Shown: positions 1,019 through 27,762 of the stretch, in pieces
Numbering within the stretch: position 1 is the stretch's first letter
Layout of the letters: the number at the start of each line of letters is the position of its first letter
NCBI GenBank assembly: GCA_963705545.1
Contig: CAVPJX010000002.1
Location: forward strand, 109,468 to 173,467
Source of the DNA: an uncultured Actinomycetes bacterium
GTDB taxonomy: Bacteria; Actinomycetota; UBA4738; HRBIN12
Direction of reading: 5' to 3'
DNA length: 64,000 bases
Position numbers and translations under genes: made by a program
The notes under the pieces: model-generated
The model's input: only the letters and a program-made list of their open reading frames with translations
The model's database searches: none
Told to the model about the DNA's origin: nothing

Positions 1019-1041
1019 GCGATCACCTTACCGCGACCCCC

Positions 1042-3088
1042 TCATCCGATGAGCGCGGCCGCGAGGGCCTCGGGCTCGGTGACGGGCAGTCGGCACGCGA
1101 ACCGCTCGCAGACGTAGGCGGCCGGCCGACCGTCCACCAGGGTCCGATCGCGGAGCAACGGGACGAGCTCGGTCGCCGCGGCGTCGTCGGGCCGTGCCAC
1201 CGTGAGCGAGACGTTCGGGAGGAACCGGCCCGTCACCTCGTCGATCAACGCGCGCGTCGCCGGCGTACCCGGGTCTCCGACGATCGCCACCTCGCGACCG
1301 GGTCCCACGAAGCGATCGAGGGCCGAGAGCGCGTGTCCGAAGGCGGTCGGTGCGCGGCCCATCGGGTCGCGGACCAGACGCAGCGCGCCCTCTGCCGCTC
1401 CCTCGTACCGCGCGTCGCCCGTGAGCCCCGCGAGCCGCAGCAACACCTCCGCCGCGGCCGAGTTGCCCGAGGGCGTCGCGTTGTCGTACAGCTCCTTCGG
1501 GCGAACGACCAGCGCTTCGGCGTCGACCGCCGTCTGGAAGAAGCCGCCGCGTTCCCCGTCGGCGAACCGCGACAACAGCTCGTCGGCGAGCGATCGCGCA
1601 GCCTCGAACCACCGCAGCTCGAACGTCGTCTCGTACAAGGTCAGGAGCGCCGATGCGAGCAGCGCGTGATCGTCGGCGAAGGCCGGTCGGCCGGCGATGC
1701 CCGCCCGCCACGAACGGAGCAGGCGCCCGTCGCCGTCGCGCAGGTGCTCCCACACGAACGCGGCGCACGTCTCCGCGGCCTCGACGTACGTCGGGCGCCC
1801 CCATCGCCCGCCCGGCCTCCGCCAGCGCGGCGATCGCCATCGCGTTCCACGCCGTCAGCACCTTGTCGTCGGTGCCGGGCCGGACCCGTGCCTCGCGCGC
1901 CGCGAGCAGGATCGCACGCGCCTGGTCGAGGCGTGCGGGCAGGTCCGCCGTCGCCCGGCCGGACGCCACGAGCTCCGCCGGGTCGAGCGGGCGCCACAAG
2001 ACGTTGGTGCCCTCCCAGTTCCCCTCGGGGACGGCCCCGAACGCGCGCGCGACCTCCGGGTCCACGAGGCGGGTCAGCTCGTCCCAGCCCCAGACGAAGA
2101 ACCGCCCCTCGACGCCCTCGGAGTCCGCGTCCTGCGATGACCAGAAGGCGCCTCTCCCGTCCCGCATCTCACGCAGCAGGTAGTCGAGCGTGCGGGCGGC
2201 GACGTCCCGGTACCGGTCGTTCCCGGTCACCTGCCAGGCGCGCGTGTACAGCTGGGCCAGCTGGGCGTTGTCGTACAGCATCTTCTCGAAGTGCGGGACG
2301 TGCCATCTGACGTCCGTGGCGTACCGGGCGAACCCGCCACCGACCTGGTCGTGGATCCCACCGTCCGCGATGCGATCGAGGGTGGTCGTGAGGACCTCCA
2401 TCGCGCCCGGTCGATCGCGGACCGCGCACCGGAGCACGAACCCCAGGGTCGTGGGCTGCGGGAACTTCGGCGCGCCGCCGAACCCGCCCCATCGCGGATC
2501 GAAGGCTCGGCGGAGCCGCTCCAGGGCCTCGACGACGACCCCGTCGTCGAGCGCCGCCGCGCTCCCCGTCAGCTCCGACGGCCGGCCGATCGCGGCGACG
2601 ACGTTCGCGCCCTGCGCGACGAGGTCGTCGCGCCGGTCGCGCCAGGCATCTGCGATCCCGGCGAGCACCTGCCGGAACGCGGGCATCCCGTGGCGGGGCT
2701 CGTTCGGGAAGTAGGTCCCGGCGTAGAAGGGCTCGCCCGCGGGCGTGAGGAACGCCGTCATCGGCCAGCCGCCGCCTCCCGTCATCGCCTGGACCGCGTC
2801 CATGTAGATCGCGTCGACGTCGGGGCGCTCTTCGCGATCGACCTTGATCGAGACGAAGTGGGCGTTCATCTGCGCGGCCGTCGCCTCGTCCTCGAACGAC
2901 TCCCGCTCCATCACGTGACACCAGTGGCAGGCCGCGTACCCCACCGACAGGAGGATCGGTTTGTCCTCGCGCCGAGCCCGATCGAACGCCTCCTCGCCCC
3001 AGGGGTACCAATCCACGGGGTTGTGGGCGTGCTGCAGCAGGTACGGGCTGGTCTCGTTCGCCAACCGGTTGGCCCGACGCTCGCTCAT
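1042..3088 (-). pseudogene. thioredoxin-domain protein, YyaL/DUF255 family (Trx + six-hairpin glycosidase-like fold); frameshifted near 1795-1800
   Basis: The N-terminal about 430 aa ([22 protein letters not shown]...[12 protein letters not shown]...) are in the 1028..3088 frame. The C-terminal about 235 aa (...[20 protein letters not shown]...) continue in the 1042..1755 frame. A G5 run (atgggggcg) at about 1795 restores one continuous protein if read as G4. Confidence 0.75.
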
Positions 3089-3187
3089 GCCGTTCAGTCT
3101 CTCGCGTCCGCGCGCGAGGGTGTGCGTCGCGGACCCGGGCGCGGCCGAGACCTCCGCCCGGCTTCAGCCCGGGGGGCAGGCGTGCCG

Positions 3188-3868
3188 ATGAGGAAGCAGG
3201 CCATGGAAGAGGACATCAGGATCCTGATCGTCGACGAGAGCCCGGGCCTCGCCGAGGCGCTGCAGCTCGAGCTCCCACGGCGGGTCCAGGTCGCCGTCCT
3301 CGGCCCCGTCCCCGACGCCCTCGCGGCGCTCGACGCGATGGATCGCGAGGTCGTCGATCTGGTCCTGGTGGACCTCGATCGCGATGAGGGGGATGGGCTC
3401 GAGACGGTGCGGTTGATCCGCGAGGGCAACGGCGCCGCGCGCGTGCTCTGCGTGTCCGAGGCGCGGGCCCCCGAGGCGGCCGCCGGCGCGCTCGCGGCGG
3501 GCGCCGTGGGCGTGATCCGCCCGGACTCCGGCGGCACGGCCACGCTGTCCGCCCTGCGGCGGGCCCTCGCGGGCGAGCTCGTGCTGCCGGCCGTGCATCT
3601 CCCCAACCTCGTCGACCGTCTCCGGACGAACCGGGATCTGAGCGACGGCGAGCGACTGTCGTCGCTCACGGGTCGCGAGCGCGAGATCCTCCGCCTGCTC
3701 GCCGACGGGGGCGCGACCACCGAGATCGCCTCGGCGCTCGGCATCAGCCCGATGACCGTGCAGAGCCACGTGAAGAACATCCTGTCGAAGCTCGCCGTCC
3801 ATTCGAAGGTCGAGGCCGTGACGCTCGCGTGGAGGACGGGCCTCGCCACGGTCACGCGCTCCGGATGA
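3188..3868 (+). CDS. NarL/LuxR-family response regulator (receiver + LuxR HTH)
   Basis: 226 aa. Receiver-like N-terminus (ILIVDES...DLVLVDLDRDEGDGLE) and LuxR C-terminus (LTGREREILRLLADGGATTEIASALGISPMTVQSHVKNILSKL). The start comes from residue counting within ORF 2291..3868; an alternative ATG is at 3203. Confidence 0.8.
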   Translation: MRKQAMEEDIRILIVDESPGLAEALQLELPRRVQVAVLGPVPDALAALDAMDREVVDLVLVDLDRDEGDGLETVRLIREGNGAARVLCVSEARAPEAAAGALAAGAVGVIRPDSGGTATLSALRRALAGELVLPAVHLPNLVDRLRTNRDLSDGERLSSLTGREREILRLLADGGATTEIASALGISPMTVQSHVKNILSKLAVHSKVEAVTLAWRTGLATVTRSG

Positions 3869-3894
3869 CCGGCGCGCGATAGCCTTCCGCCACG

Positions 3895-4596
3895 ATGGGG
3901 GGGAAGGTGGACGGCGGACAGGCCGGGGGGCGGGTCGTCGTGGCCGATGCCCATCCCGCGGTCCGCGGGGCCGTCCGGCTCTCCTGCGCGGCGATCCCGG
4001 GTCTGGACGTCGTCGACGAGACCTCGAGCGGCGAGGAGCTCCTGGCCTCGTGCCGCCGCCTGCATCCGGACGCCGTCGTGCTCGACCTCTCGCTCCCCGA
4101 TCGAGAGGGATTCGATCTGATCCGTGAGGTCCGCCACGACGAGCTCGCCCGCGTGATCGTGATCCTGTCCGATCGCACGGACGGCGCGACCGTCTTGGAG
4201 GCGCTTCGCCTGGGTGTGGACGGCTACCTCGTGAAGGCGACGGGTCTGACCGACGTCGGGCGCTCCGTCGCTCGGACGCTCGCGGGTGAGCGCGTCGTCT
4301 CTCCGGAGCTCGAGCCGGTCACCGTGCAGGAGCTCGGGCGCCGCGTCCGGCAGGCTCGAGAGGGGACCGAGGTCCGGGCCACGCTGACCGCGCGGGAGCA
4401 CGAGATCTTGCTGCTGCTCAGCGAGGGCTCCACGATCCAGCAGGTCGCGCATCGCCTGGGGATCTCGCCGAAGACGGTCGAAACCCATGTCGCGAAGCTC
4501 TACCGCAAGCTCGACGTTCGGACGCGCGTCCAGGCCGTGGCTCGGGCGGCCTCGCTGGGGCTGATCGAGCTCAATCGCGGACCCGACCGCTCCTGA
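3895..4596 (+). CDS. NarL/LuxR-family response regulator
   Basis: 233 aa. Receiver (VVVADAHPAVR...VVLDLSLPDREGFD) plus LuxR HTH (LTAREHEILLLLSEGSTIQQVAHRLGISPKTVETHVAKLYRKL). Confidence 0.8.
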   Translation: MGGKVDGGQAGGRVVVADAHPAVRGAVRLSCAAIPGLDVVDETSSGEELLASCRRLHPDAVVLDLSLPDREGFDLIREVRHDELARVIVILSDRTDGATVLEALRLGVDGYLVKATGLTDVGRSVARTLAGERVVSPELEPVTVQELGRRVRQAREGTEVRATLTAREHEILLLLSEGSTIQQVAHRLGISPKTVETHVAKLYRKLDVRTRVQAVARAASLGLIELNRGPDRS

Positions 4597-4753
4597 GCCC
4601 TCGAGTGACTCGCCGATCGTCCGATCGGTCCTGAACCGTCGTTCGATCCGTGTCCCCCGGTTCCCCTCAGTTCCTCGTACGCATCCGCCGATACACGACC
4701 CAGAGGAGGCAGCTGCCGTCTCGGGCGTCGGGCCCGGAGCCGGGGCGTCCGAG

Positions 4754-5470
4754 ATGACGAGACGGAGCACGACGGATGACGCGCCCCCTCCCCCGGTGGT
4801 CCGCCGGCGGCTCGGCGTCGTCGTCGTCGACCCGTTGCCCGTGGTGCGGGCCGGTCTCGGGCTCTTGATCGAGGACCGGCCGGACCTCGAGGTGCTCGCC
4901 GAGGCGGGGACCGCGGAGGAGGGCTTGGAGGCGATCGGGCGGATCCGCCGGAGCCGCGTGATCGTGCTCGTGGGGCTCGGGCTCGCCGGCGACCACGATT
5001 CCTACTGGTTGATCCGTACCCTGCGCCAGCGGTACCCGGCGCACGCGATCCTCGGGTGCGGTGCCAACGCCGATCCCACCGCGATCTCGCGTGCGCTGTT
5101 CGTCGGCGCGGACGGCTTCGTCGACAAGAACATCGACCCCGTCGAGTTCCTGCAGGCGCTCCGCGCGGCCGCGGCGGGCGACATGGTGCTGGCCACGCCC
5201 GCCTCGTCGTCCTCGCTCGGTGCGATCGCCGAGGGGATCGAGCGCCGGCGAGAGGTCGAGGTGAAGCTGACGGAGCGCGAGCGGGAGGTCCTCGTCGTGG
5301 CGGCCGAGGGTCTGACCGCTCGGCAGATCGCCACGCGCCTCGGCGTGCGCGAGCGAACCGTCACGACGCACCTCGCGCGGATCTACGGCAAGCTCGGGGT
5401 GGGCAACCGCCTCGCCGCGATCCGTCTCGCGACGCGCTCGGGTCTGGTGTCCGTCGGCTCATCGGAATGA
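4754..5470 (+). CDS. NarL/LuxR-family regulator with a degenerate (pseudo-)receiver domain
   Basis: 238 aa. The LuxR HTH is at the C-terminus (LTEREREVLVVAAEGLTARQIATRLGVRERTVTTHLARIYGKL). The receiver-like region reads VIVLVGLGLAGDHD where the phospho-acceptor Asp is expected. Confidence 0.75.
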   Translation: MTRRSTTDDAPPPPVVRRRLGVVVVDPLPVVRAGLGLLIEDRPDLEVLAEAGTAEEGLEAIGRIRRSRVIVLVGLGLAGDHDSYWLIRTLRQRYPAHAILGCGANADPTAISRALFVGADGFVDKNIDPVEFLQALRAAAAGDMVLATPASSSSLGAIAEGIERRREVEVKLTEREREVLVVAAEGLTARQIATRLGVRERTVTTHLARIYGKLGVGNRLAAIRLATRSGLVSVGSSE

Positions 5471-5591
5471 AGCACGTTGGCGCGCGGATCGCGACCGTCG
5501 CACGCTCCCGTGACGTTACGTAGAAGTACGTACCGCGATTCGGGATCACTAGGGATTCTCGGCTGACGTCCGCACTCCTACCGTGTCCCCT

Positions 5592-5608
5592 GGCGGCTGT
5601 GAGCCGCC
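5592..5608 (+). promoter_or_regulatory. short hairpin in the flp 5' leader (GGCGGCT-gtg-AGCCGCC)
   Basis: 7-bp perfect stem with a 3-nt loop, about 45 nt upstream of the flp ATG. Seen directly. Confidence 0.3.
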
Positions 5609-5652
5609 CGGGCAACGCCCGAATGGCTTCCAGCCTTCGGAGAGGAGGTGAC

Positions 5653-5853
5653 ATGTTCCTTCGTCTCTACACCGGCGCACAGACCTGGTGGGGCGACTTC
5701 CGTCTTCGCGCTCGCGAGGAGGGTGGCGCCACGGCGGTTGAGTACGCGCTGATGGTGGCCCTGATCGCCGCCGTGATCATCGGTGCCGTGACGATCCTCG
5801 GTCAGAACGCTGAGGACAAGTTCACGGACGTCGGTACCGCGGTGGGCAGCTGA
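5653..5853 (+). CDS. flp: Flp family type IVb pilin (prepilin)
   Basis: 66 aa. MFLRLYTGAQTWWGDFRLRAREEGG/ATAVEYALMVALIAAVIIGAV carries the canonical Flp G/xTAVEY processing motif followed by a hydrophobic helix. The Shine-Dalgarno sequence GGAGAGGAGGTG precedes the ATG. This is an internal start of ORF 5599..5853. Confidence 0.8.
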   Translation: MFLRLYTGAQTWWGDFRLRAREEGGATAVEYALMVALIAAVIIGAVTILGQNAEDKFTDVGTAVGS

Positions 5854-5884
5854 TCCATCTGCCTTTCCATCGTACGAGCGGCCT

Positions 5885-5933
5885 TCGCCGGCCGCTCCCT
5901 CCCCCGACGAAGCCGGGGGAGCGAGGGGCCGGC
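5885..5933 (+). terminator. GC-rich stem-loop (about 19-21 bp stem, 7-nt loop) immediately after the flp stop
   Basis: cgccggccgctccctcccccg-acgaagc-cgggggagcgaggggccggcg. I paired it by hand at 19/21 positions. There is no U-tract, as is usual for high-GC Actinobacteria. Confidence 0.4.
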
Positions 5934-6047
5934 GAACCACCCCCCAACATCGAACCAGAGATGGCCTCCTCCCGTCGGCGGATCGCTGCTCCAGCCACGC
6001 GGCTCTCGCGCCGATAGGAGTCAGGAGTTCCGAAAGGAGACGGAAAC

Positions 6048-6848
6048 ATGAGATCACGAGGTCTGGTGGTCGCCGTTGCCCTGGTCCTGGCAGCCCTGGC
6101 AGCGGGGGCGGTGATCCTCTACACGAACGGGGTCAAGGAAGAGGCGGTCAGCGGCGGCGAACTCACCACGGTGATCGTCGCCACGCAGGAGATCCCGGCC
6201 AACACCCCGCTCACCCCGTTGCTCGAGGGCGGAGGCTTCAAGGAGCTCGCCGTCCCGAACGACGCGGTCGTCGACGGGGCCGTGACCAGCCTGGACGAGC
6301 TGAAGGGCCGGACCACGACGTCGCCGCTGCTCGCGAACGAGCAGATCTCGGTGGCGGATCTCGACACGGGCGAGGCCCCCGCGGGCGGCGCGCTCGGGAT
6401 CTCGAAGGGTCACGTCGCGCTCACGTTCAAGCTGAACGCGCCCCAGGGCGGGTTCGGGTACATCCAGCGCGGCGACAACGTCTCGATCTACGCGACGTAC
6501 AACGGCACCTCGATCATCCCCGGATCCATCGAGGACCTGATCGCCGGCAACTCCGCCGACACGACCGCGAAGCGGCAGGAGCTGCCGGACTTCACGGCCA
6601 CGGTCATCCCCACGGTCCGCGTGCTGGCGGTCGAGAACCCCGGCGTGGACGAGGAGGGCAACCCCACGGGTGAGAACGTCACCTTGACGCTCGACCTCAC
6701 GCCCGAGGACGCCCAGGCCTTGGTCTTCGCGTCCGAGAACGCGCTCGTGTGGGTCGGCCTCCTGCCTCCGGGCGAGGACGGTCAGCAGCCTCCCGCGACG
6801 CAGGTGCCGGTCGAGCTGCTGCTCGGGAAGCGGGGAGCCCTGGCATGA
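6048..6848 (+). CDS. cpaB: Flp pilus assembly protein CpaB/RcpC (SAF domain)
   Basis: 266 aa. N-terminal TM helix (LVVAVALVLAALAAGAVIL), then ...TVIVATQEIPANTPL... typical of CpaB. Good RBS (GGAAAGGAGACGG). Confidence 0.8.
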   Translation: MRSRGLVVAVALVLAALAAGAVILYTNGVKEEAVSGGELTTVIVATQEIPANTPLTPLLEGGGFKELAVPNDAVVDGAVTSLDELKGRTTTSPLLANEQISVADLDTGEAPAGGALGISKGHVALTFKLNAPQGGFGYIQRGDNVSIYATYNGTSIIPGSIEDLIAGNSADTTAKRQELPDFTATVIPTVRVLAVENPGVDEEGNPTGENVTLTLDLTPEDAQALVFASENALVWVGLLPPGEDGQQPPATQVPVELLLGKRGALA

Positions 6849-8068
6849 CCGATGCCAGCGTCGTCGCCGTCGGGACGCCGCAGTCCTTCCGCCAGCAGAT
6901 CGCCCGGGCCCTCGAGGTCGAGATGGACGAGATCGGCTGGGTGCAGTCGGCCACGGCCGCGGAGGAGCTCCTGATCAACGCCTACAACCCGGTCGACGTG
7001 ATGGTGCTGTCGCCCGAGGTCAAGGAACAGGACGCGCTCGGCCTGGCGGAGTTCATGGGCCGCCAGGCCCCGGGCACGGCGATCGTGCTCGTCCGCGACC
7101 ACACGTGGAACGGCTTGCTTCCGGCCGCGATGCGCGCGGGGATCCGCGACGTCGTGGACATGACCCAGGGCAACGACGAGCTCCGCGAGGCCGTGGAGCG
7201 CGCCGTCCTGTGGGCCACGAACCTGCGCAGCGCCGCGGGTCCGCAGCGCGACGGCGGCCCCGCCCAGCGCGGGCACGTGATCTCGGTCTTCTCGTCGAAG
7301 GGCGGTTCGGGCAAGACCTTCCTCGTCACGAACCTGGCCGCCTCGATCGCCGACATCACCGGGCAGGACACGGCGGTCGTCGACCTCGACACCGACATGG
7401 GCGACGTCTTCACCTACTGGGGCCGTGAGCCGATCGCGCGGCTCGAGGACCTGATGGGCATCGGCGAGGGCGGCGAGCACGACAAGATCCGCGAGGTCGG
7501 GGTCCAGTTCGATCAGCACGTCTGGGGGTACGGCACGCCGCCCGATCCCTCGACCGAGCCGCCCGCCGGTGAGGCCGTCGGCAAGTTCCTGCGGACGCTC
7601 CGAGCTGACTTCCCGTGGGTCGTCGTGGACGCCTCGGTGGACTATTCGGACTCCGCGCTCGTCTGTTTCGACCTGTCGGACGCGATCTGCCTGGTGACCC
7701 CCCTCGACGTCGTGGGGGTGAAGCACCTGTCCAAGGCGCTCGACACGCTGCTGACGATCGGGTTGCCACGCGACCGGTTCCGCGTCGTGCTGAACCGAGC
7801 CGACAGCAAGGTCGGACTCGACTCCGGCGACGTCGAGCGCGTGATGAAGGTCGAGGTGGACGTGATGATCCCCTCGAGCCGCCTGGTGCCGACGGCGCTG
7901 AACAAGGGGCGCCCCGTCGTGCTCGACGAGCCCGGCTCGGACGTCTCGACCGCGGTGCGCCACCTGGCGACGAAGCTCACGCATCAGTTCAGCGGCGCCG
8001 AAGCGGGCGCCGCCGATCCGAACGGCAACGGCAAGGGCAAGAAGCGGAAGCTGTTCTCGAAGGCGTAA
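6845..8068 (+). CDS. cpaE: pilus assembly ATPase CpaE/TadZ (receiver-like N-domain + ParA/MinD-type ATPase)
   Basis: The ATG at 6845 overlaps the cpaB stop (ATGA). Walker A reads VFSSKGGSGKTFLVTNLA. The N-terminal region is a pseudo-receiver, as in TadZ. Confidence 0.8.
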   Translation: MTDASVVAVGTPQSFRQQIARALEVEMDEIGWVQSATAAEELLINAYNPVDVMVLSPEVKEQDALGLAEFMGRQAPGTAIVLVRDHTWNGLLPAAMRAGIRDVVDMTQGNDELREAVERAVLWATNLRSAAGPQRDGGPAQRGHVISVFSSKGGSGKTFLVTNLAASIADITGQDTAVVDLDTDMGDVFTYWGREPIARLEDLMGIGEGGEHDKIREVGVQFDQHVWGYGTPPDPSTEPPAGEAVGKFLRTLRADFPWVVVDASVDYSDSALVCFDLSDAICLVTPLDVVGVKHLSKALDTLLTIGLPRDRFRVVLNRADSKVGLDSGDVERVMKVEVDVMIPSSRLVPTALNKGRPVVLDEPGSDVSTAVRHLATKLTHQFSGAEAGAADPNGNGKGKKRKLFSKA

Positions 8069-8083
8069 GGGAGAGGATCCACG

Positions 8084-9403
8084 ATGTCCCTGGCAGACAG
8101 GCTGGCGAAGGCGCAACAGCGGGACCGCATCTCGGAGGTTCGAATCCGCGTCCAGGAGCGTTTGGTCGAGGTCCTCGGCCCGCGGCTCTACGACTCGACC
8201 CTCTCCGACGACGAGCTCGAAGGCCTGGTCCACCAGCGCCTGCGCGAGCTCCTCGACGAGGAGGAGGGTCCGCTCTCGGCGCAGGAGAAGCTCCTGATCG
8301 TCCGGCAGATCGGCGACAGCGTCCTGGGTCTCGGGCCGCTCGAGCCGTTCGTCCGGGACCCGGACGTCACCGAGATCATGGTGAACAGCTGGGACACGAT
8401 CTACGTCGAGCGCGGCGGCAAGCTGTACTGGACCGGCACGAAGTTCCACGACGACCAGCAGCTCCGCCGCACGATCGACAAGATCGTGGGGAAGGTCGGC
8501 CGCCGTGTCGACGAGGCCAGCCCCTACGTGGACGCGCGGTTGCCGGACGGTTCCCGTGTGAACGCGATCATCCCGCCGCTCGCGCTGGACGGTCCCTCGC
8601 TCACGATCCGGAAGTTCGCCGCCGACCCGTACGGCGCCGACGACCTGATCGAGTTCGGGACCTTCACGTCCTCGGTGGCGCAGTTCCTCGAGGCCTGTGT
8701 CCGTGGCCGCATCAACATCATGGTCTCCGGAGGGACGGGCGCCGGGAAGACCTCGACCCTGAACGTCCTGTCGTCGTTCATCCCGGACGACGAGCGGATC
8801 GTCACGATCGAGGACGCGGCCGAGCTCCGGTTGCAGCAGCCGCACGTGGTGCGGCTGGAGGGACGCCCGCCGAACATCGAGGGCAAGGGCGCGGTCACGA
8901 TCCGCGACCTGGTCCGCAACTCCCTGCGGATGCGGCCCGACCGGATCGTGGTCGGGGAGGTCCGTGGCGCCGAGGCCCTGGACATGCTCCAGGCGATGAA
9001 CACCGGCCACGACGGCTCGATCTCGACGATCCACTCGAACTCGCCGCGCGACTCGCTGTCGCGCCTGGAGACGATCACGCTGATGGCGGGCATGGACCTG
9101 TCGCCGCGGTCGATCCGCGAGCAGATCGCGTCGGCGATCCAGCTGATCGTGCACCAGCAGCGGCTGAAGGACGGCACCCGCCGCTTCACCCACGTGACCG
9201 AGATCGCGGGGATGGAGGGCGAGGTGATCACCCTGCAGGACCTGTTCCTGTTCGACTTCAGCTCCGGCGTCGATGACGAAGGGAAGTTCCGCGGTCGCCT
9301 GAAGTCGACCGGGCTGCGCCCGAAGTTCATGGAGCGCCTCGAGGAGCACGGGGTGCGTGTCGACCCGGAGATCTTCGCGCTGGAGACGCGGGGGAACCTG
9401 TGA
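8084..9403 (+). CDS. cpaF: Tad/Flp pilus secretion ATPase CpaF/TadA
   Basis: 439 aa. Walker A is VSGGTGAGKTSTLN. The type II/IV secretion ATPase signature includes ...RPDRIVVGEVRGAEALDMLQAMNTGHDGSISTIHSN. Confidence 0.9.
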   Translation: MSLADRLAKAQQRDRISEVRIRVQERLVEVLGPRLYDSTLSDDELEGLVHQRLRELLDEEEGPLSAQEKLLIVRQIGDSVLGLGPLEPFVRDPDVTEIMVNSWDTIYVERGGKLYWTGTKFHDDQQLRRTIDKIVGKVGRRVDEASPYVDARLPDGSRVNAIIPPLALDGPSLTIRKFAADPYGADDLIEFGTFTSSVAQFLEACVRGRINIMVSGGTGAGKTSTLNVLSSFIPDDERIVTIEDAAELRLQQPHVVRLEGRPPNIEGKGAVTIRDLVRNSLRMRPDRIVVGEVRGAEALDMLQAMNTGHDGSISTIHSNSPRDSLSRLETITLMAGMDLSPRSIREQIASAIQLIVHQQRLKDGTRRFTHVTEIAGMEGEVITLQDLFLFDFSSGVDDEGKFRGRLKSTGLRPKFMERLEEHGVRVDPEIFALETRGNL

Positions 9404-10413
9404 TCGGGCTCGGCAACTTCTGGGGCACCGACGCAGCGCTCTACCTGGCGGTCGCCCTGGTCGCGCTGGCGGCCTTCCTGATGGGGTGGATGCTGCTGGG
9501 CACGGCGGCCCGCCGCAAGAAGGACCGCGAGACAGCCCAGCGCCTCGCGTCGATCAGCGGTCGCGGCGGCGGACAGCACGTCCCGCAGATGCCGATGGAC
9601 AAGGGTGCGGGGGGATGGATCCCCGCGAGCGTGACCCACTTCGGCCGGCGGTTCGCCGACAAGCGTGGGTTCTCCGAACGGCTCGACGCCGAGCTCGAGG
9701 CCGCGAGCGTCAGCCTCCGGTCGGGGGAGTTCGTCGTGGTCACCGTCGGCGCGGTGTTCGCCGGCGCGATCGTCGCGCTCGCGGTGTTCGGCAACCCGCT
9801 CTTCGCGCTCGTCGGCGGCGTGATCGGCGGACTCGCGCCGACCGCGGCCCTTCGGGTCGCGCTCAAGCGACGGGCCGAGAAGCTGCGTGAGCAGCTCCCC
9901 GACGTCCTGACGATCATGGCAAGCTCGCTCCGGGCCGGTCACAGCTTCCTCCAGGCCCTCGACACCGTCGCGCGCGAGATCGCGCAGCCGGCCGCGACCG
10001 AGTTCCAGCGGGTGGTCGCCGAGATCCGGCTGGGCCGCAGTGCCGAGGATGCGCTCGAGGCGCTCGCGGAGCGCGTCGGGAGCTCTGACTTCAAGTGGGC
10101 CGTGCTGGCGGTCAACATCCAGCGGGAGGTCGGCGGGAACCTGGCCGAGATCCTCGACAACGTGTCGGACACGCTGCGCGAGCGCGCGATGATGCGCCGT
10201 CAGGTCCGCGTCCTCACGTCCGAGGGACGTCTGTCGGCGTGGGTGCTGACCCTGCTGCCGATCGGTATCGCCTTCTACCTGTTCGCGATGAGCCCCGACT
10301 ACATCGGGCTGCTCTTCAGCACGACGATCGGGTACGTCATGTTGGGCGGCGCCCTGATCCTGTTGGTCGCGGGGGTCCTGTGGATGAGGAAGATCGTGAA
10401 CATCGATGTCTGA
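9400..10413 (+). CDS. tadB: Flp pilus assembly membrane protein TadB (T2SS-F domain)
   Basis: 337 aa, polytopic. The GTG start overlaps the cpaF stop (GTGA). T2SSF-like region: ...LPDVLTIMASSLRAGHSFLQAL... Confidence 0.85.
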   Translation: MIGLGNFWGTDAALYLAVALVALAAFLMGWMLLGTAARRKKDRETAQRLASISGRGGGQHVPQMPMDKGAGGWIPASVTHFGRRFADKRGFSERLDAELEAASVSLRSGEFVVVTVGAVFAGAIVALAVFGNPLFALVGGVIGGLAPTAALRVALKRRAEKLREQLPDVLTIMASSLRAGHSFLQALDTVAREIAQPAATEFQRVVAEIRLGRSAEDALEALAERVGSSDFKWAVLAVNIQREVGGNLAEILDNVSDTLRERAMMRRQVRVLTSEGRLSAWVLTLLPIGIAFYLFAMSPDYIGLLFSTTIGYVMLGGALILLVAGVLWMRKIVNIDV

Positions 10414-11350
10414 GCTCTGGCTGATCGTCGCCGTCGCGTCCGTCTTCGGGGCCGCCCTGTTGATCGGGCTCGCCATGGACCAATCGACCTCGCAGCGCAA
10501 GCGAACCGTCCGCCTGCTCGAGTCGCAGGTGAGCGGGTCTACGACGACCGACTCGACGAACCTGCGGGACCGGGAGATGCAGCGCGGCTTCGGCGAGCGC
10601 GTCCTCATCCCCGTGGTCGGAGGCGCCACCCGCATCGCCCGTCGCGTGACGCCCCTCGATGCGCGCGACCGGATCGCCAAGAAGCTGTTGCTCGCCGGGA
10701 GCCCGCCGGGCTGGGACGCCGAGCGCATCCTCGCGTTCAAGATCATCGGGTGCGTCGGGGCGTTCATCGCCGGGCTCTTCGTCAGCAAGCTGATCGGCCT
10801 GACCGGCTTCACCGGGATCATCGTGATCGGCCTGCTCACGGTCGCGGGGTTCCTGCTCCCCGACTCGGCCCTCTCGCGCAAGGTCGAGGAGCGCCAGCAC
10901 GAGATCCTCGGCACCCTGTCGGACACGCTCGACCTGCTCACGATCAGCGTCGAGGCGGGGCTGTCGCTGAACGCCGCGATCGCGCAGGTCGTCCAGAACG
11001 TTCCCGGCACGCTCTCGTCGGAGTTCGCGCGGATGCTCCAGGAGATCCAGCTGGGCGTGCCGCGGTCCGAGGCGTTCCGTCATCTGGCGGAGCGGACCGA
11101 CGTCGAGGAACTGAACGCCTTCGCGCTGGCCATGATCCAAGCGGACGTCTTCGGCGTCTCGATCGCGAGCGTCCTTCGGACCCAGGCCCAGCAGCTGCGG
11201 ATCAAGCGCCGACAGCGGGCAGAGGCCCGGGCGCAGCAGACGCCGGTCAAGATCGTGTTCCCGCTGATCCTGTGCATCCTGCCGGCCCTGTTCGTCGTGA
11301 TCATCGGGCCCGGCGTGATCCGGATCATGGATCAGATCCTGAGCACCTAG
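10406..11350 (+). CDS. tadC: Flp pilus assembly membrane protein TadC (T2SS-F domain)
   Basis: 314 aa. The start overlaps the tadB stop. ...LSDTLDLLTISVEAGLSLNAAIAQVVQN... is T2SSF-like. Confidence 0.85.
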   Translation: MSELWLIVAVASVFGAALLIGLAMDQSTSQRKRTVRLLESQVSGSTTTDSTNLRDREMQRGFGERVLIPVVGGATRIARRVTPLDARDRIAKKLLLAGSPPGWDAERILAFKIIGCVGAFIAGLFVSKLIGLTGFTGIIVIGLLTVAGFLLPDSALSRKVEERQHEILGTLSDTLDLLTISVEAGLSLNAAIAQVVQNVPGTLSSEFARMLQEIQLGVPRSEAFRHLAERTDVEELNAFALAMIQADVFGVSIASVLRTQAQQLRIKRRQRAEARAQQTPVKIVFPLILCILPALFVVIIGPGVIRIMDQILST

Positions 11351-11440
11351 ACCCGACCGGACCGTCCGGACCCGACCCGTCCCAGGGACCTACTCGGGTC
11401 GGCGCTCAAGGTGGGTTCCCGCCGTGCCGACACCTGAGGC

Positions 11441-11593
11441 ATGCGGACCGAGCGCACGCTCGAGAGGATCCTCGGAGCCTTCGCCGAGGCCGTCGAGGCC
11501 GGCGAGTTCGAGGCGGCCGAGGGTTGGGTCGCCGTCGCCGACTGGGTTCGGACCCGGTCCACGGCTCCCGCGTTCGCTCCGGCCTCGCGTTGA
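11441..11593 (+). CDS. small acidic hypothetical ORF (about 50 aa) downstream of tadC
   Basis: ATG...TGA ORF read by eye (MRTERTLERILGAFAEAVEAGEFEAAEGWVAVADWVRTRSTAPAFAPASR). It is not in the supplied track (too short). Coordinates are approximate and no family was recognised. Confidence 0.2.
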   Translation: MRTERTLERILGAFAEAVEAGEFEAAEGWVAVADWVRTRSTAPAFAPASR

Positions 11594-11797
11594 CCTCGGG
11601 TCCTCCCGGCTCGACCGCGCTCGGATCGCCAGGTCCCTCCCGGCTCGACCGCGTCTGACCTGCCCAGATCACCCGAGGCCGTCGGCGACGGACGTAGGTC
11701 TTCGGTCGCATTGCGGCGTCCCCCTCTCATGCCCTACACTCGCCCCGTCCGGGTAGGCTGTTCGTGCTACCCGGAAGGTCGAGAGGAAGGTGTGCTG

Positions 11798-12040
11798 ATG
11801 AAGCGGATCGGTTTCGCAGTAGCCACCGCGATCTCGTTCGTGCTGTGCGTGGCCGCCCCCGCGTTCGCCCAGTCCGTGGAGCCGAACGGGCCGGACGTCG
11901 AGGGGACGGGCGGTTCGGCTGGGGGCACGGCCTTCACCGGCGCCAACGTGTCGAGGAGCCTGCTCCTGCTGGCGGTCTTGATCGTCATCGGGACGCTCGC
12001 CCTGTACGTCGGCCGTCGCCGGTCGCACGTCGCCAGCTGA
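11798..12040 (+). CDS. small secreted protein with a signal peptide and a C-terminal TM anchor plus basic tail
   Basis: 80 aa. MKRIGFAVATAISFVLCVAAPAFA/QS... has a Gly-rich middle and ends ...SLLLLAVLIVIGTLALYVGRRRSHVAS. The RBS GAGGAAGGTG precedes the ATG. This is an internal start of ORF 11711..12040. Confidence 0.45.
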   Translation: MKRIGFAVATAISFVLCVAAPAFAQSVEPNGPDVEGTGGSAGGTAFTGANVSRSLLLLAVLIVIGTLALYVGRRRSHVAS

Positions 12041-12133
12041 CGCGACACGGACCAGATCGTGCTTCCGACCCCCCATCGGGGGGTCGGTTCGCGTCCGGGT
12101 CCGTTCCGTTCCGTTCGGCAGGGTAACCGTCGT

Positions 12134-14119
12134 TCAGAATGGGCGCGTCAGGTCCCGCCAGAGGCGCACCGGCAGCGACGGCGCGAACGAGACCTCCAGG
12201 TCGAGGTTCCCGTTCGGCACACCTTCGTATACGACCTTCCCGCCCTCGACCCTGAGCCCGGCGCTCAGCGCCGTCGCGTGCATCCCGTCGGGGAGCGTGA
12301 TCGCCACCCGGAGCTCGGCGGGGTCGATCGTGACCTGGTCGACGAAGCTCAGCCGGTAGGTGCCGCCGCTCGAGGTGCCGTCCCACGCCCGGATCAGGAA
12401 CAGGCTCGCCTCGACGACCGACGTGTCGCCGGCGGCCGTGTGGACGTAGTCGTCGAAGTAGGGGTGCCCGTCCTGCTCGAACCGGTCCAGGTCGACCGGG
12501 CGGCCGTCGCGCGTGCCCGCGCGCAGCACCGCGCTCTCGTCGGTGTACAGGTGGACGACGGCTAGGTTGTCGCCCGGGTTCTCCGTGTAGCCGGGGTACG
12601 GACCGATCACGTACTTCGGGAACCCTGAGGTGGGCGCGTCGTTCTCGATCGAGGCCGACAACGTCGCGCGTGCGGTCCCGCCCTCGTCCAGCGCGACGTC
12701 GTAGGCGATCATCCGGCGTTGGAAGAAGTCGAGCTTCGTCCCCGAGCCGCTGTTCGTGATCAACGCGATCGCGTCGGTGCCGTCGGGTCGGAACGCGCCG
12801 CCGGCCCCGGTGAGCGCGAGCCCCTCTTGCATGTCGGGATCGGTGGTCCAGACCTTGACGTGGCCGTCGTCGAACGCGCGCAGGAGAGCGCGCTGTCGCA
12901 TCAGGTCGTCGCCCGAGGTCGCGAGGAACCGGGCCAGCACGTCGGCGGCCACCTCGCCGAGGACGGCCTTGCGCTCCTCGTTCGTGTCGAACAGGGCGTA
13001 GGCTTCGTTCGAGACGAAGCGGACGATCCGGTCGGGCGCGACCCGCACGCCGGCGCTGCGGACCTCCACCGGTCCCGTCACGCGCATCAGGGCCTGCAGC
13101 GCGAACGGGTCCGCGACGATCACGCCGTCCAGGGGTTCGCCGGTGGCTTCCTCGTACGACATCGCGATCGTCCCGGCGGCGAGCGGGAAGTCGGGCGTCA
13201 TGTTGGTGTTCAGCCAGAAGTGGACCGCCTCCCAGTAGAAGCCGGCGTTGTCGATGTACTCCTGCGACGGGGAGCGCCAAGTGCTCTCGTTCAACTCGGG
13301 CAGGCTCTGCACCGGGCGGAAGTCCGAGAACGAAAGGGCCCCGTCATCGATCGTGAGGATCGCGTACGCCCCGATCAGCCCACCCGTCCCGCGCTCCTCG
13401 GCCGGGTTCGCGGCCCCGAAGAAGTACCGCTTCGGGCCGTCCTCGCCCAGGAACGCCGGGAGTCCGCGCAGGATCGCGGCGCCAGCCTCCAGCTGGCGGG
13501 CGAGCGGCTCGATCGCCTCCAGGGCCTCAGCGCGGGCCGACGCGACCGGGCCGAGCACCAGGGTGGACGCGCTCCGTTCGAGCCCAGCGAGCGCCTGGTC
13601 GGCGAGCTCCGAGGCCGATCCGACGGCGGTCGCCAGCCCGACCAGGGGCTCGAGCGGGATCGCCCCGTCTCGCGGGGCGAGGCCACCGAGGCCGCCCGGG
13701 ACCTCGCCGAGCGCCGACGCGATCGTGGCGGCCGCGTCCGCGGTTCGGACGCCCGCGTCCGAGATCGCGCGCACGGTATCGGGCGTCCGTCCGAGCACCG
13801 GGATCGCGGCTGCGAGCGCGTACCAGGGGGTCCGGGCGTCGCCGGCCGCGGCTCGGAACTCACGGCCCGCATCCTGGAACGCCGTGGCCGCCCCGTCGAC
13901 GTCGCCGTCGCGCAGCGCGGTCTTGCCCGTCTCGAGCGCGTCGCGCCCGGACTGGAGGTGGCGGCGGGCCGCGAGGGAGCCGATCCCGACCAGCACGAGG
14001 TCCAGCACGAGGACCGTCACGAGCGCCCCGAGGATCAGCCAGACGACGCGACGACGGGGACGACGCCGAGGCTCGATCGGCGGGGCGTCCGGACGCGGTT
14101 CGGTCGTGGTGGTGTCCAT
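12134..14119 (-). CDS. membrane-anchored large extracytoplasmic protein (DUF4012-like, tentative)
   Basis: Start chosen at MDTTTTEP (residue 64 of ORF 12134..14308). It has a single N-terminal TM helix (VVWLILGALVTVLVLDLVLVGI) followed by about 600 aa. The family assignment is from memory only. Confidence 0.55.
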   Translation of the reverse strand: MDTTTTEPRPDAPPIEPRRRPRRRVVWLILGALVTVLVLDLVLVGIGSLAARRHLQSGRDALETGKTALRDGDVDGAATAFQDAGREFRAAAGDARTPWYALAAAIPVLGRTPDTVRAISDAGVRTADAAATIASALGEVPGGLGGLAPRDGAIPLEPLVGLATAVGSASELADQALAGLERSASTLVLGPVASARAEALEAIEPLARQLEAGAAILRGLPAFLGEDGPKRYFFGAANPAEERGTGGLIGAYAILTIDDGALSFSDFRPVQSLPELNESTWRSPSQEYIDNAGFYWEAVHFWLNTNMTPDFPLAAGTIAMSYEEATGEPLDGVIVADPFALQALMRVTGPVEVRSAGVRVAPDRIVRFVSNEAYALFDTNEERKAVLGEVAADVLARFLATSGDDLMRQRALLRAFDDGHVKVWTTDPDMQEGLALTGAGGAFRPDGTDAIALITNSGSGTKLDFFQRRMIAYDVALDEGGTARATLSASIENDAPTSGFPKYVIGPYPGYTENPGDNLAVVHLYTDESAVLRAGTRDGRPVDLDRFEQDGHPYFDDYVHTAAGDTSVVEASLFLIRAWDGTSSGGTYRLSFVDQVTIDPAELRVAITLPDGMHATALSAGLRVEGGKVVYEGVPNGNLDLEVSFAPSLPVRLWRDLTRPF

Positions 14120-20380: not shown

Positions 20381-21019
20381 CTATCCTCGCAGGTTCCGTT
20401 TCCCTCGCGGGGCGGCGAACCGCTGCAGGCCGCCTGTGTCGTTCACCAACAGCACGTGCGGCTGCGCCCCATCGATGTGGACGACCGAAACGGCCGCGGT
20501 GTCGACGATCGTGCGCTGGAACGCGTCGAGATGCGCGCCGGCGTAGTGCGAGACGAGCATGCGCACGATGTCGCCGTGCGTGGCGACGGCGACGTTGGCG
20601 CGTGGATGGCGCATCGCGATGCGTGTCAACCCGTCGATCGCCCGCGCCTGCGCTTCCGGGAACGACTCGCCGTCCGGGAAGCGGAACGCGGACGGCGTTG
20701 CCTGCAGGACGCGCCACGCCTTCGTCCGGCGGACCTGCGCGAGGGAACGGCCGGTCCACGACCCGGCGTCCATCTCGATCAGCGCCGCGCGTCGCTCGAC
20801 GGCGAGCCGCCGCGCCGTGGCGAGCGGTTCGATCGTCTCCACGCATCGCTCCAGCGGGCTCGAGTAGGTGGCGCCGAGTCGGACCCCTTGGAACCGCTCG
20901 ATCAGCGCGTCGGCTTGCGCCCGTCCGCGATCGTCGAGACCGATCCCGGCGGTCCGACCGTAGAGGATCTTGCCGGTCTGCGCGGTCAGACCATGCCGGA
21001 TCAGGAAGAGCGTCGTCAC
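20381..21019 (-). CDS. histidine phosphatase family protein (phosphoglycerate mutase-like)
   Basis: 212 aa. MTTLFLIRHGLTAQT... carries the catalytic RHG motif. Confidence 0.8.
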   Translation of the reverse strand: MTTLFLIRHGLTAQTGKILYGRTAGIGLDDRGRAQADALIERFQGVRLGATYSSPLERCVETIEPLATARRLAVERRAALIEMDAGSWTGRSLAQVRRTKAWRVLQATPSAFRFPDGESFPEAQARAIDGLTRIAMRHPRANVAVATHGDIVRMLVSHYAGAHLDAFQRTIVDTAAVSVVHIDGAQPHVLLVNDTGGLQRFAAPRGKRNLRG

Positions 21020-21043: not shown

Positions 21044-22201
21044 TCAGTCGGCGGGTGCCATGGGCAGCCGCACCACGAAGGTTGACCCGCGCCCGAGCTC
21101 GCTTCGAACGTCGACCGTGCCGCCGTGGTTCTCCGCGACGTGCTTGACGATCGCGAGTCCGAGCCCCGTGCCCCCGGTCTCGCGGGAACGCGCGCGGTCG
21201 ACGCGGTAGAAGCGCTCGAAGATCCGCGGGAGCTCCCGCGACGGGATCCCCAGCCCCGAATCCTCGACCTCGAGGATCACCGACCGGTCCTCGGTCGCCA
21301 CCGTGATCCGGACCCGTCCGTCCGGCGGCGTGTAGCGGATCGCGTTGTCGACGAGGTTCCGGATCAGCAAGGAGAGGTCGCGCGCGGATCCGACGACCGG
21401 CGGCGCCGGCGGAGCATCGATCTCGAGCGAGAGCTTCGCATCCTGCGCCGTCGCCTCGAACCGCTGGCCCTCCTCGCGCACGAGCGCGTCGAGTCTGACG
21501 CGGTCATCCAGGATGCCTCCGGATTCCAGGCGGGAGAGGTCCAGCAGGTCGGCCACGATCCGCGAGAGGCGAACGGCATCCCGTTCGAGCTGGGCCGCGA
21601 ACCGCGGAACGGCGTCCGGGTCCTCCTCCGCGGCATGGGCGAGCGTCTCGGCCGCGGCCTGGATCGACGCCGCGGGCGTCTTCAGCTCGTGGGACGCGTT
21701 CGCGACGAAGTCCCTGCGGATCGCCTCGACCCGCCGGCTCTCGGTGATGTCGGTGACCACCATGAGGGTGGAGCCGTCCTCGCCGGCTGGGGTCGCCGTG
21801 ACGCGGAGCCACCGAGGCGGCGTCCCACGCTCGATCTCGGTGGAGGTGACGGCCCTGGATGTGGTCGCCCGCTCCGCCGCCTGCCGGATCGCCGGCGGAT
21901 AGACGTGGCCGAGCGAATCAGGACGACCGCCCAGGTGTTCGACGAGCGCCCCGTTCGCGAAGACGGTGCGTCCCTCGCCGTCGACCAGCAGGACGCCCTC
22001 CCGCATGGATCCGAGCGTCAGCTCCTGCACTCGGCGTGCCTCCGTCGCCTCCTCGCGGCCCTCCTCCAGCGATGCACGCGCGGCACGGATCGAGCGGTCC
22101 GCCTGCGCCAGCTCGCCACGTCGCGACCGGCGCCCGAACAGGAACCCGACGACCGCGATCACCGTCGCCCCCACGATCCCGACAAGCACGTCCGCGTCCA
22201 C
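21044..22201 (-). CDS. PAS-containing sensor histidine kinase, SenX3/PhoR-like
   Basis: 385 aa. N-terminal TM, a PAS domain (MREGVLLVDGEGRTVFAN), HisKA (FVANASHELKTPAAS) and an HATPase_c domain. It lies divergent to pstS. Confidence 0.8.
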   Translation of the reverse strand: MDADVLVGIVGATVIAVVGFLFGRRSRRGELAQADRSIRAARASLEEGREEATEARRVQELTLGSMREGVLLVDGEGRTVFANGALVEHLGGRPDSLGHVYPPAIRQAAERATTSRAVTSTEIERGTPPRWLRVTATPAGEDGSTLMVVTDITESRRVEAIRRDFVANASHELKTPAASIQAAAETLAHAAEEDPDAVPRFAAQLERDAVRLSRIVADLLDLSRLESGGILDDRVRLDALVREEGQRFEATAQDAKLSLEIDAPPAPPVVGSARDLSLLIRNLVDNAIRYTPPDGRVRITVATEDRSVILEVEDSGLGIPSRELPRIFERFYRVDRARSRETGGTGLGLAIVKHVAENHGGTVDVRSELGRGSTFVVRLPMAPAD

Positions 22202-27044: not shown

Positions 27045-27762
27045 ATGTCGGCGGACCCGGGACGCACATCCGAGCCCGGCCTGCGGATCCTGGTCGTCGA
27101 GGACGAGGAGTCGCTCGCGGACTCGGTCCGGTACAACCTGGAGCGCGAGGGGTACCTGGTCACGGTCGCGACCGACGGCCGCGCGGCGATCGAGCGCTTC
27201 CGTGGGGAGCAGCCGGCCCTGGTGATCCTCGACCTGATGTTGCCCGGAGGTCTCCGGGCTCGACGTCTGCCGCACGCTACGCGCCGAATCCGATGTCCCG
27301 ATCATCATGGTGACGGCGAAGGACTCGGAGGCCGACAAGGTCGCGGGCCTCGAGCTCGGCGCCGACGACTACGTCACGAAGCCGTTCTCGGTTCGCGAGC
27401 TCGTCTCGCGCGTGCGTGCGCACCTCCGCCGGTCGCGGATGCACTCGGTCGACGAGGCCGACGAGGTGCTCGTGGGCGGTCCGGTACGCATGGACGTCCA
27501 ACGGCACGAGGTGCGCGTGGGGGGCGGTGAGGTCGCCTTCCCCCCGAAGGAGTTCGAGCTCCTGGAGGCGTTGCTCCGGCGGAAGGGGCGCCTGCTCACC
27601 CGCGACTTCCTGATCGAGGAGGTCTGGGGCGCAGACTACTTCGGCGACACCAAGACCCTCGACGTCCACGTCAAGCGGATCCGTCGGAAGATCGAGCCGG
27701 ATCCCCATCACCCCACGCACCTGGTCACGGTCCGAGGGCTGGGCTACAAGTTCGTCGCCTGA
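27045..27762 (+). pseudogene. OmpR-family response regulator RegX3/PhoP-like; frameshifted near 27255
   Basis: Receiver (LRILVVEDEESLADSVRYNLEREGY...LVILDLMLPG) is in the 27045 frame. ...IIMVTAKDSEADKVAGLELGADDYVTKPFS...winged helix is in the 27307 frame. One extra g (ggaggtctcc) separates them. Confidence 0.8.

Follow-up and report, generated by a model that had tools for sequence, protein, structure and literature searches.

In a 64,000-nt stretch of DNA from an uncultured Actinomycetes bacterium (contig CAVPJX010000002.1; this whole stretch is called the window, and has a GC content of ~72%), the genes of a Tad/Flp pilus are preceded by three genes for response regulators of the NarL/LuxR family, designated RR1, RR2 and RR3. 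The analysis suggests, with an even chance of being right, that this locus is a dedicated, kinase-less regulatory cassette for the pilus, acting by a cascade in which a sigma-28-type factor would control the regulators and the regulators would control the pilin. The three open reading frames (ORFs) occupy 3188-5470 on the same strand, lie head to tail and have coding-type base composition at third codon positions (GC3): RR1 at 3203-3868 (+), RR2 at 3895-4596 (+) and RR3 at 4754-5470 (+). An earlier note made from the sequence alone had described such a head-to-tail array and its spacers, which are indeed exactly 26 nt (3869-3894) and 157 nt (4597-4753), and had placed it directly 5' of flp-cpaB-cpaE-cpaF-tadB-tadC, which is confirmed by Pfam assignments for the neighbouring genes. 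The RR2 and RR3 ORFs are as described there, but the RR1 start at 3188 is unlikely: because ATG 3188 falls within the conserved promoter-like box GCCGATGA, the start is probably the ATG at 3203 (MEEDIR...), and RR1 proteins of relatives begin M-x-E-D-I-R just 3' of that box.

All three proteins combine an N-terminal receiver (PF00072 Response_reg; 47.0, 66.0 and 35.1 bits for RR1, RR2 and RR3, cut-off 30.2) with a C-terminal LuxR-type four-helix helix-turn-helix (HTH) domain (PF00196 GerE; 72.1, 61.9 and 62.0 bits, cut-off 23.5), the domain pair by which the NarL/FixJ (LuxR-HTH) family is recognized. E. coli NarL is the best match of known structure for each (E = 2e-24, 4e-29 and 7e-23, respectively), and full-length matches include NarL, VraR, DevR and RcsB. 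The proteins fall far below every cut-off among NCBIfam equivalogs, the best scores being 108-132 bits for NarL (cut-off 250) and 113 bits for MadR (cut-off 300). Pairwise identity among the three is only 30-32%, and they are therefore old, distant paralogues and not recent duplicates.

The feature that sets these regulators apart is the condition of their phosphorylation pockets, which were numbered on NarL residues D13, D14, D59, S87 and K109 using pairwise HMMER alignment and a MAFFT alignment with ~170 orthologues. The canonical receiver quintet (acidic pair, acceptor Asp, Ser/Thr, Lys) is present in none of them. RR1 has the acidic pair D-E, the acceptor Asp and Ser at the Ser/Thr position, and has Pro at the Lys position, with an Arg one residue earlier ('GVIRPD'); RR2 has D-A as its acidic pair, the acceptor Asp, Ser and Lys; RR3 has D-P, G74 at the acceptor position, G103 at the Ser/Thr position and K125. 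According to Bourret et al. 2025 (PMC12632262) a pseudo-receiver is a receiver in which any one of the five active-site residues is missing. Since each lacks at least one of these, RR1, RR2 and RR3 are all pseudo-receivers, i.e. atypical response regulators, of which only RR3 belongs to the aspartate-less subclass. For RR1 and RR2 the atypical assignment draws on Pfam and the NarL alignment together with MAFFT (RR1) or the orthologue table (RR2), and for RR3 it draws on Pfam, the alignments, an AlphaFold2 model and Foldseek.

The loss of the acceptor aspartate in RR3, which the earlier note had read within VIVLVGLGLAGDHD (RR3 residues 69-82), is borne out by alignment of the receivers: HMMER sets G74 opposite NarL Asp59, and MAFFT concurs. 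An AlphaFold2 model of RR3 (61 sequences; mean predicted local distance difference test score (pLDDT) 77.8, and >90 for residues 21-100) retains the (beta-alpha)5 receiver fold, and in it G74 forms the C-terminal end of beta3, the acceptor position; the top Foldseek matches of the model are ChrA, LiaR, VraR, RcsB and NarL. Because Gly fills the acceptor site, RR3 is not phosphorylatable on Asp. Among 59 orthologues this position is G in 42, A in 12 and S in 5 and is never D, and the pocket Lys is kept in all 59, so the view of RR3 as a phosphorylation-independent pseudo-receiver holds across the lineage. Asp phosphorylation certainly plays no part in the action of RR3, and probably none in that of RR1 and RR2; RR1 with no Lys and RR2 with no second acidic residue would, to judge from their pocket residues, be poor acceptors at best.

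The array and its pilus genes are retained together. At E <= 1e-10 the database contains more than 2,300 relatives of RR3; identity is 75% or higher for every one of the best 120, among which the few named entries are metagenome-assembled genomes (MAGs) of Actinomycetota. A scan of one genome per species identified 63 loci with RR3 at 62-91% identity, all from uncultured Actinomycetota/Actinomycetes MAGs, below which identity falls sharply to 38% or less (unrelated regulators). In ~60 species-level genomes the order DUF255(-)/RR1/RR2/RR3/flp/cpaB-cpaE-cpaF-tadB-tadC is retained almost everywhere; only two species (L019 and L032) have two regulators, RR1 being absent. Many relatives carry, between RR3 and flp on the opposite strand, a gene for a polytopic membrane protein of ~500 residues (487-500 aa; in loci L003-L011 among others, e.g. 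10677-12179 (-) in L009) that belongs to no Pfam family and has no match in the window, and many carry tadE-like (PF07811) and Tad/TadG-like (PF13400) genes between flp and cpaB. From a single MAG, SMAG_U3924, come two distinct copies of the whole cassette (L001 and L022), whose RR3 proteins are 91% and 66% identical to that of the window; either its bin is mixed or the genome has two such loci.

Relative to the window proteins, median identity is 87% for CpaF, 74% for RR3, 70% for Flp, 53% for RR2 and 51% for RR1, making RR3 the best conserved of the three regulators. Its invariant residues cluster in the HTH and in alpha4-beta5-alpha5, a receiver surface that often serves dimerization or partner binding (PMC12632262). 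RR1 and RR2 receivers vary freely across orthologues: the acceptor Asp is found in 42 of 55 RR1 proteins and the Lys in only 9 of the 55, and in RR2 the acceptor Asp and the Lys are each present in 57 of 58, with a full acidic pair in only 6 of the 58. The recognition helices of the three HTH domains are strongly conserved and mutually distinct (TVQSHVKNI, TVETHVAKL and TVTTHLARI). The five divergent species in which RR1 and RR2 both have canonical quintets (L013, L015, L021, L023 and L041) suggest an ancestral state of two ordinary regulators and one Asp-less regulator, followed by decay of the pockets.

No kinase gene was detected beside the array. When the window's three kinases were used as tblastn queries, none of the 63 family loci showed a kinase gene within 10 kb; as a positive control, this search detected HisKA_3 kinases adjacent to the regulator in 13 of the 18 unrelated response regulator loci that the species scan had also retrieved. 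A cognate kinase that is adjacent or in the same operon, the hallmark of canonical two-component systems, is thus lacking here. The earlier statement that no histidine kinase lies nearby therefore stands within 10 kb, but it passed over a PhoR-like HisKA kinase at 21044-22201 (-), the nearest in the window at ~15.6 kb, which lies beside pst genes. This kinase is membrane-anchored with PAS-HisKA architecture, and beside it are a histidine phosphatase-family gene (20381-21019, -) and PstS-like and PstB-like genes. The C-terminal two-thirds of an OmpR-type regulator is encoded at 27307-27759, its true start probably being further upstream, and with this regulator near 27.3-27.8 kb the PhoR-like kinase forms a pair that therefore resembles a PhoR/PhoP-type system.

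The clearest candidate for a target of the regulators is the promoter of the pilin gene flp (Flp/Fap pilin; PF04964, E = 2e-13), which lies at 5653-5853 (+). The 182-nt intergenic region between RR3 and flp contains at 5517-5532 a 16-bp inverted repeat, motif A (TACGTAG-AA-GTACGTA; TACGTAGAAGTACGTA), whose two TACGTA hexamers are the only ones in the 64-kb window. Motif A can be read as TACGTAG-NN-CTACGTA, a 7-2-7 inverted repeat of the form TAC-N10-GTA, and is a candidate NarL-type dimer operator. The 7-2-7 inverted repeat is the geometry of dimer sites for the C-terminal domains of NarL-family proteins. With at most one mismatch, TACGTA-N4-TACGTA occurs 50 times in 949 kb of related loci, in every case at a flp promoter or the equivalent position: 46 of the 50 matches lie 124-162 nt upstream of a detected flp, and the remaining four are at contig ends or where flp is too divergent for detection. 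Motif A travels with flp where another gene parts flp from RR3, and in a locus with two flp copies (L055) a match precedes each copy. Neither RR1 nor RR3 is preceded by a copy, be it in the window or in related loci, and autoregulation through motif A was rejected on that ground.

Alignment of 50 flp upstream regions reveals a gapless conserved architecture, in which TACGTAG-nA-nTACGTA is followed by 8 nt, a second element (motif B), ~19 nt, a TAnnnT box, a leader hairpin and the ribosome-binding site. Motif B (5541-5560) is bipartite and non-palindromic, reading CGGGATCACTAGGGATTCTC in the window and C.GGGAAA..CGGAATTCCC in the lineage consensus; it overlaps the -35 region and has fixed spacing to both motif A and the -10 box in the 50 promoters. 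The predicted flp -10 hexamer is TACCGT (5579-5584, +; TAnnnT type, within the conserved column block 'cta.cgt'). No -35 hexamer is evident at flp, and a consensus scan of 3000-6100 found no E. coli-type sigma-70 promoter. If transcription starts at the predicted site near 5591, motif A is centered at about -66 and motif B at about -40, which are typical activator positions.

Directly after the -10 box, at 5588-5612 (+), the flp 5' leader contains the inverted repeat I15 (GGCGG...CCGCC; GGCGGCTGTGAGCCGCC), a hairpin whose position is kept in ~50 related loci and which shows by eye apparent compensatory changes (GGTGG/CCACC in L007, GCGAA/TTCGC in L040). RNAalifold applied to 36 flp leaders returned no supported consensus hairpin, because the leader alignment is poor, and the only alternative that it gave, a weak one, pairs CCGCC with the Shine-Dalgarno sequence; an Rfam scan of the window gave no match, and the leader hairpin fits no described RNA family. 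A second hairpin between flp and cpaB (5884-5936, +; 23-nt arms, 91% complementary) is likely a terminator or attenuator that parts expression of the pilin from that of the machinery.

A different signal, CTCA/TTCA followed after 16-17 nt by GCCGAT[A/G], precedes RR1, RR3, cpaB and a distant gene for a GAF/multi-PAS kinase. The consensus for flagellar/WhiG-type promoters of Actinomycetota is a -35 element TAAA/T(A/C)AA/CTCA, N15-17, and a -10 element GCCGATAA with central CGA (PMC8325347, PMC12871210), and the predicted promoters P_RR1, P_RR3, P_cpaB and P_HK match this sigma-28-dependent consensus in sequence. P_RR1, predicted to serve RR1-RR2, spans 3163-3191 (+), with the -35 element TTCAG (3163-3167), N16 and the -10 element GCCGATGA (3184-3191); in 55 of 57 loci the RR1 receiver is preceded, at ~50 nt, by the pattern [CT]T[CT][AC]-N16-17-GCCGA. 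Predicted P_RR3 spans 4666-4694 (+; CTCAG, N16, GCCGATAC), and upstream of RR3 the strict form CTCA-N17-GCCGATAG is found in 37 loci and GCCGATA in 41 of 63. P_cpaB, predicted to serve cpaB-tadC, spans 5989-6017 (+; CTCCAG, N15, GCCGATAG), and 12 related loci have GCCGATA 38-49 nt ahead of the cpaB start. Predicted P_HK, at 60202-60175 (-), reads CTCATCC-N13-GCCGATAA and is present in 11 of 11 full-length metagenomic relatives of the kinase gene, as GCCGATAA in ten and GTCGATAA in the eleventh; in loci L081-L094, where it lies in the spacer that follows an FrhB-like gene, it takes the form CTCCAC/CTTCAC...GCCGATAA. What gives these boxes their weight as evidence is positional conservation across genomes.

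Taken together, these elements suggest the following mechanism. A sigma-28-family (FliA/WhiG-like) factor, encoded outside the window, would transcribe RR1-RR2, RR3, cpaB-tadC and the GAF-PAS kinase gene from the CTCA/TTCA-N16-17-GCCGAT[A/G] promoters. RR1-RR3, as homodimers and/or heterodimers, would then bind the flp promoter at motif A (~-66) and at motif B overlapping the -35 region, and would activate the TAnnnT promoter despite its having no recognizable -35 box. The sequences of the window and of MAGs, compared with one another, show directly the gene content, the pocket residues and their conservation, and the position-specific conservation of the cis-elements; the pairing of these proteins with these sites, and activation instead of repression as the outcome, are what we infer from them. 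Pilin synthesis would follow and would depend on the sigma-factor decision, a feed-forward cascade, and the hairpin after flp (5884-5936) with a separate cpaB promoter would fit uncoupled production of abundant pilin and scarce machinery. The proposal of the earlier note that the array regulates flp/tad thus finds circumstantial support in synteny across ~60 species, in the promoter type common to RR1, RR3 and cpaB, and in a palindrome of NarL geometry that is confined to flp. A more elaborate version is offered only tentatively: the three proteins may constitute a combinatorial, phosphorylation-free dimer code in which RR3 is an obligate Asp-less partner in the manner of WhiI or RcsA, a sigma-28 decision (possibly c-di-GMP-gated, WhiG-type) may be passed on to the pilin, and the lineage may record stepwise conversion of the RR1 and RR2 pockets. 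A 568-aa protein encoded at 35858-37561 (+), ahead of a cyanophycinase/cyanophycin synthetase pair (37831-41555), has an HD_5/HD domain that we take to be of the HD-GYP type, and it may be relevant if the proposed sigma factor is gated by c-di-GMP like WhiG2.

Several observations weigh against the proposed cascade. RR1 and RR2 retain the acceptor Asp, so phosphorylation may still matter, and phosphotransfer sometimes survives changes at DD, T or K (PMC12632262). In five deep-branching relatives (L013, L015, L021, L023 and L041) the pockets of both RR1 and RR2 are fully canonical, with quintets DDDTK or DDDSK and EDDTK or EDDSK. No sigma-28-family gene is found among the window genes scanned, and the sigma factor itself is for that reason one that we infer. 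Only about one locus in three shows P_cpaB, and the strict pattern CTCA-N16-17-GCCGAT is matched three times in the window against 0.54 expected, a modest excess; the third of these matches lies at 22590-22616 (+). Motifs A and B could be bound by an unlinked regulator. Finally, the synteny may in part be inherited collinearity, DUF255 and pheA being equally syntenic.

Some of these observations lend themselves to the model of the earlier note, in which RR1 and RR2 are working acceptors for two distant kinases, one or both, and RR3 adds a third, phosphorylation-independent input to a multi-input Tad cascade. The two kinases exist as described, with domains confirmed by Pfam: a small soluble HisKA_3 kinase (55962-56822, -; HisKA_3 and HATPase_c, no hydrophobic segment) and a GAF/multi-PAS kinase (57218-60103, alternative start 60187, -; GAF, several PAS, HisKA and HATPase_c). 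HisKA_3 kinases normally pair with NarL-family regulators, neither RR1 nor RR2 has lost the acceptor Asp or the Ser/Thr position, and the five deep-branching relatives with canonical RR1 and RR2 have no adjacent kinase, so that their kinase must once have been a distant one. The GAF-PAS kinase gene has the same sigma-28-type box as RR1 and RR3, and its co-regulation with the cassette is therefore plausible; this kinase is, however, of the HisKA type, which is not the usual partner class of NarL-family regulators. The HisKA_3 gene, for its part, is missing between the GAF-PAS kinase and a luciferase-like gene in 15 of 15 metagenomic relatives examined, and the first ~70 residues of its product are Arg-rich and of low complexity. 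The gene may have been inserted recently or may be decaying, its link to the cassette is doubtful, and its candidacy as a conserved partner was rejected. What stands of RR1 and RR2 as ordinary acceptors fed by HisKA_3 is the kept Asp, set against degenerate pockets (the RR1 Lys and the full RR2 acidic pair surviving in small minorities of orthologues), receivers that evolve fast while their HTH domains stay conserved, and a kinase gene that is not conserved. The observation on which the earlier model was built is thus confirmed and its RR3 part supported, but its kinase-fed part is weakened, and the model as a whole is considered unlikely, though it deserves some weight.

The remaining explanations deny a pilus function to all or part of the array. 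The regulators might be transcription factors of a sigma-28 regulon with no role in the pilus, adjacent to flp by inheritance, with another regulator binding the flp motifs. The equal synteny of DUF255 and pheA would fit such an arrangement, as would the membrane-protein gene of ~500 residues that parts RR3 from flp on the opposite strand in many relatives, and the missing motif A before the RR genes, which leaves no sign of autoregulation. This explanation is nevertheless rather improbable, given that motif A has NarL-type 7-2-7 geometry and RR1-RR3 are the sole LuxR-HTH genes within 10 kb, that one promoter type is common to the RR genes and cpaB, that the lineage shows almost no variation in either RR3 or motif A, and that tad-adjacent regulators control tad in P. 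aeruginosa and Pectobacterium. It is very improbable that RR3 alone is functional and that RR1 and RR2 are duplicates decaying under relaxed selection. Their lower median identities relative to RR3, their highly variable pocket residues and the absence of RR1 from L019 and L032 would be expected in that case, but the RR1 and RR2 ORFs are intact in 54-58 genomes with coding-type GC3, their recognition helices are at least 80-95% conserved, and the RR1 promoter is conserved in the 55 of 57 loci noted above.

The other genes of the locus conform to a Tad/Flp (type IVc) pilus, for which the core set of six (Flp, CpaB/RcpC, TadZ/CpaE, TadA/CpaF, TadB, TadC) is complete by Pfam. After flp follow cpaB (6048-6848, +; RcpC), cpaE/tadZ (6842-8068, +; a CbiA/ParA-like ATPase with a weak Response_reg-like N-terminus), cpaF (8084-9403, +; T2SSE), tadB (9400-10413, +; T2SSF) and tadC (10406-11350, +; T2SSF). 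The tadE- and tadG-like genes of related loci have no tblastn match anywhere in the 64-kb window; a prepilin peptidase was not searched for systematically. A small protein encoded 3' of tadC (11711-12040, +) has an LPXTG/LAXTG-type cell-wall anchor, and homologues in L002, L006 and L009 have GCCGATA ~215 nt upstream. The DUF255/thioredoxin-domain gene that lies 5' of RR1 and is divergent from it (1028-3091, -) contains a frameshift near 1793-1812: residues 72-505 of a full-length homologue align in frame -1 and residues 499-753 in frame -2, and the break marks a pseudogene or else reflects an assembly error.

Several percent of all receiver domains are pseudo-receivers, and little is known of how their activity is turned on or off (PMC12632262). 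The present locus offers a compact, conserved test case, with three atypical NarL-type regulators, one obvious candidate target promoter, two operator-like sites in that promoter and a predicted sigma-28-type input to the regulator genes, and because these cis-elements are unusually well defined and conserved, the pseudo-receiver circuit is directly testable. The predictions are open to purified proteins and synthetic DNA, with no need for culturing. Nature supplies some 60 sequence variants for comparison, among them species that retain canonical pockets in two of the three regulators, and L013, L015, L021, L023 and L041 compared with the remaining loci look like a natural series of decay from receiver to pseudo-receiver. 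The locus combines features of known kinds, namely orphan atypical NarL-type regulators, sigma-28-type control of actinobacterial pili and tad-adjacent regulators, and would extend the predicted WhiG/FliA-type control of actinobacterial pili to the Tad/Flp system in an uncultured soil lineage.

Comparison with systems already described helps to place the cassette. NarL sites reportedly follow the 7-2-7 pattern TACYYMT-NN-AKRRGTA. Like these sites (compare PDB ID: 1JE8), the candidate operator motif A is a 16-bp 7-2-7 inverted repeat with TAC-N10-GTA; unlike them, its heptamer TACGTAG departs from TACYYMT after the first three bases. At the level of proteins, VpsT, RedZ, RamR and SecR are pseudo-receiver LuxR-HTH regulators that are controlled otherwise than by Asp phosphorylation (PMC12632262), and RR1-RR3 share with them a receiver-like domain that does not have the full set of catalytic residues and is fused to a LuxR-type HTH. 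Unlike that group, RR1-RR3 yielded no ligand or second-messenger motif, and VpsT itself is a distant structural match (Foldseek rank 50).

Regulators encoded at tad loci have precedents. According to the passage of PMC3510237 that cites Bernard et al. 2009, PprB, a NarL-family regulator at the P. aeruginosa tad locus, directly and positively controls flp/tad, and a tad-adjacent two-component system is also known from Pectobacterium. The present array resembles PprB in that NarL/LuxR-family regulators are encoded at the tad locus; it differs in that PprB is a classical regulator with the adjacent kinase PprA, whereas here there are three pseudo-receivers and, in ~60 genomes, no kinase within 10 kb. 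For the promoter boxes the closest parallels are Rubrobacter and Actinoplanes, in which WhiG/FliA-type promoters occur in type IV pilus clusters (PMC8325347, PMC12871210) and the predicted regulons also include kinases and response regulators. GCCGATA-type -10 boxes within an actinobacterial pilus cluster are common to all of these. In those organisms, however, the sigma factor is described as acting directly, whereas the flp gene analyzed here has operator-like sites and no sigma-28 box, a layer of three atypical regulators is intercalated, and the system is Tad/Flp (CpaF, TadB, TadC).

The closest functional resemblance is to BldM and WhiI of Streptomyces, where sigma-WhiG transcribes whiI, WhiI has neither the conserved Lys nor one of the paired Asp residues, and the BldM homodimer binds a palindromic 16-bp site while the BldM-WhiI heterodimer binds a non-palindromic one (PMC4125116). 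Like BldM and WhiI, RR1-RR3 are orphan NarL/LuxR-type regulators whose phosphorylation pockets are degenerate or unused, and the two residues missing from WhiI (the Lys and one acidic residue) are those missing between RR1 and RR2. As with whiI, a WhiG/sigma-28-type box, here predicted from sequence, precedes the genes of the atypical regulators RR1 and RR3, and like the BldM/WhiI targets the flp promoter has one 16-bp palindromic and one non-palindromic site. BldM orthology was tried and rejected, identity to a BldM sequence being 28-31% and below that to NarL in a comparison that serves as a lead only and did not include WhiI; since BldM is less similar than NarL and there is no equivalog match, the resemblance is one of function and not of family membership. 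The array also differs from BldM/WhiI in having three proteins instead of two, in that RR3 is without the acceptor Asp itself, and in that the predicted target is the adjacent Tad pilin gene and not sporulation genes. If the dimer-code version of the mechanism is true, the cassette would parallel the BldM-WhiI module of Streptomyces in a non-sporulating setting, with a Tad pilus attached to it.

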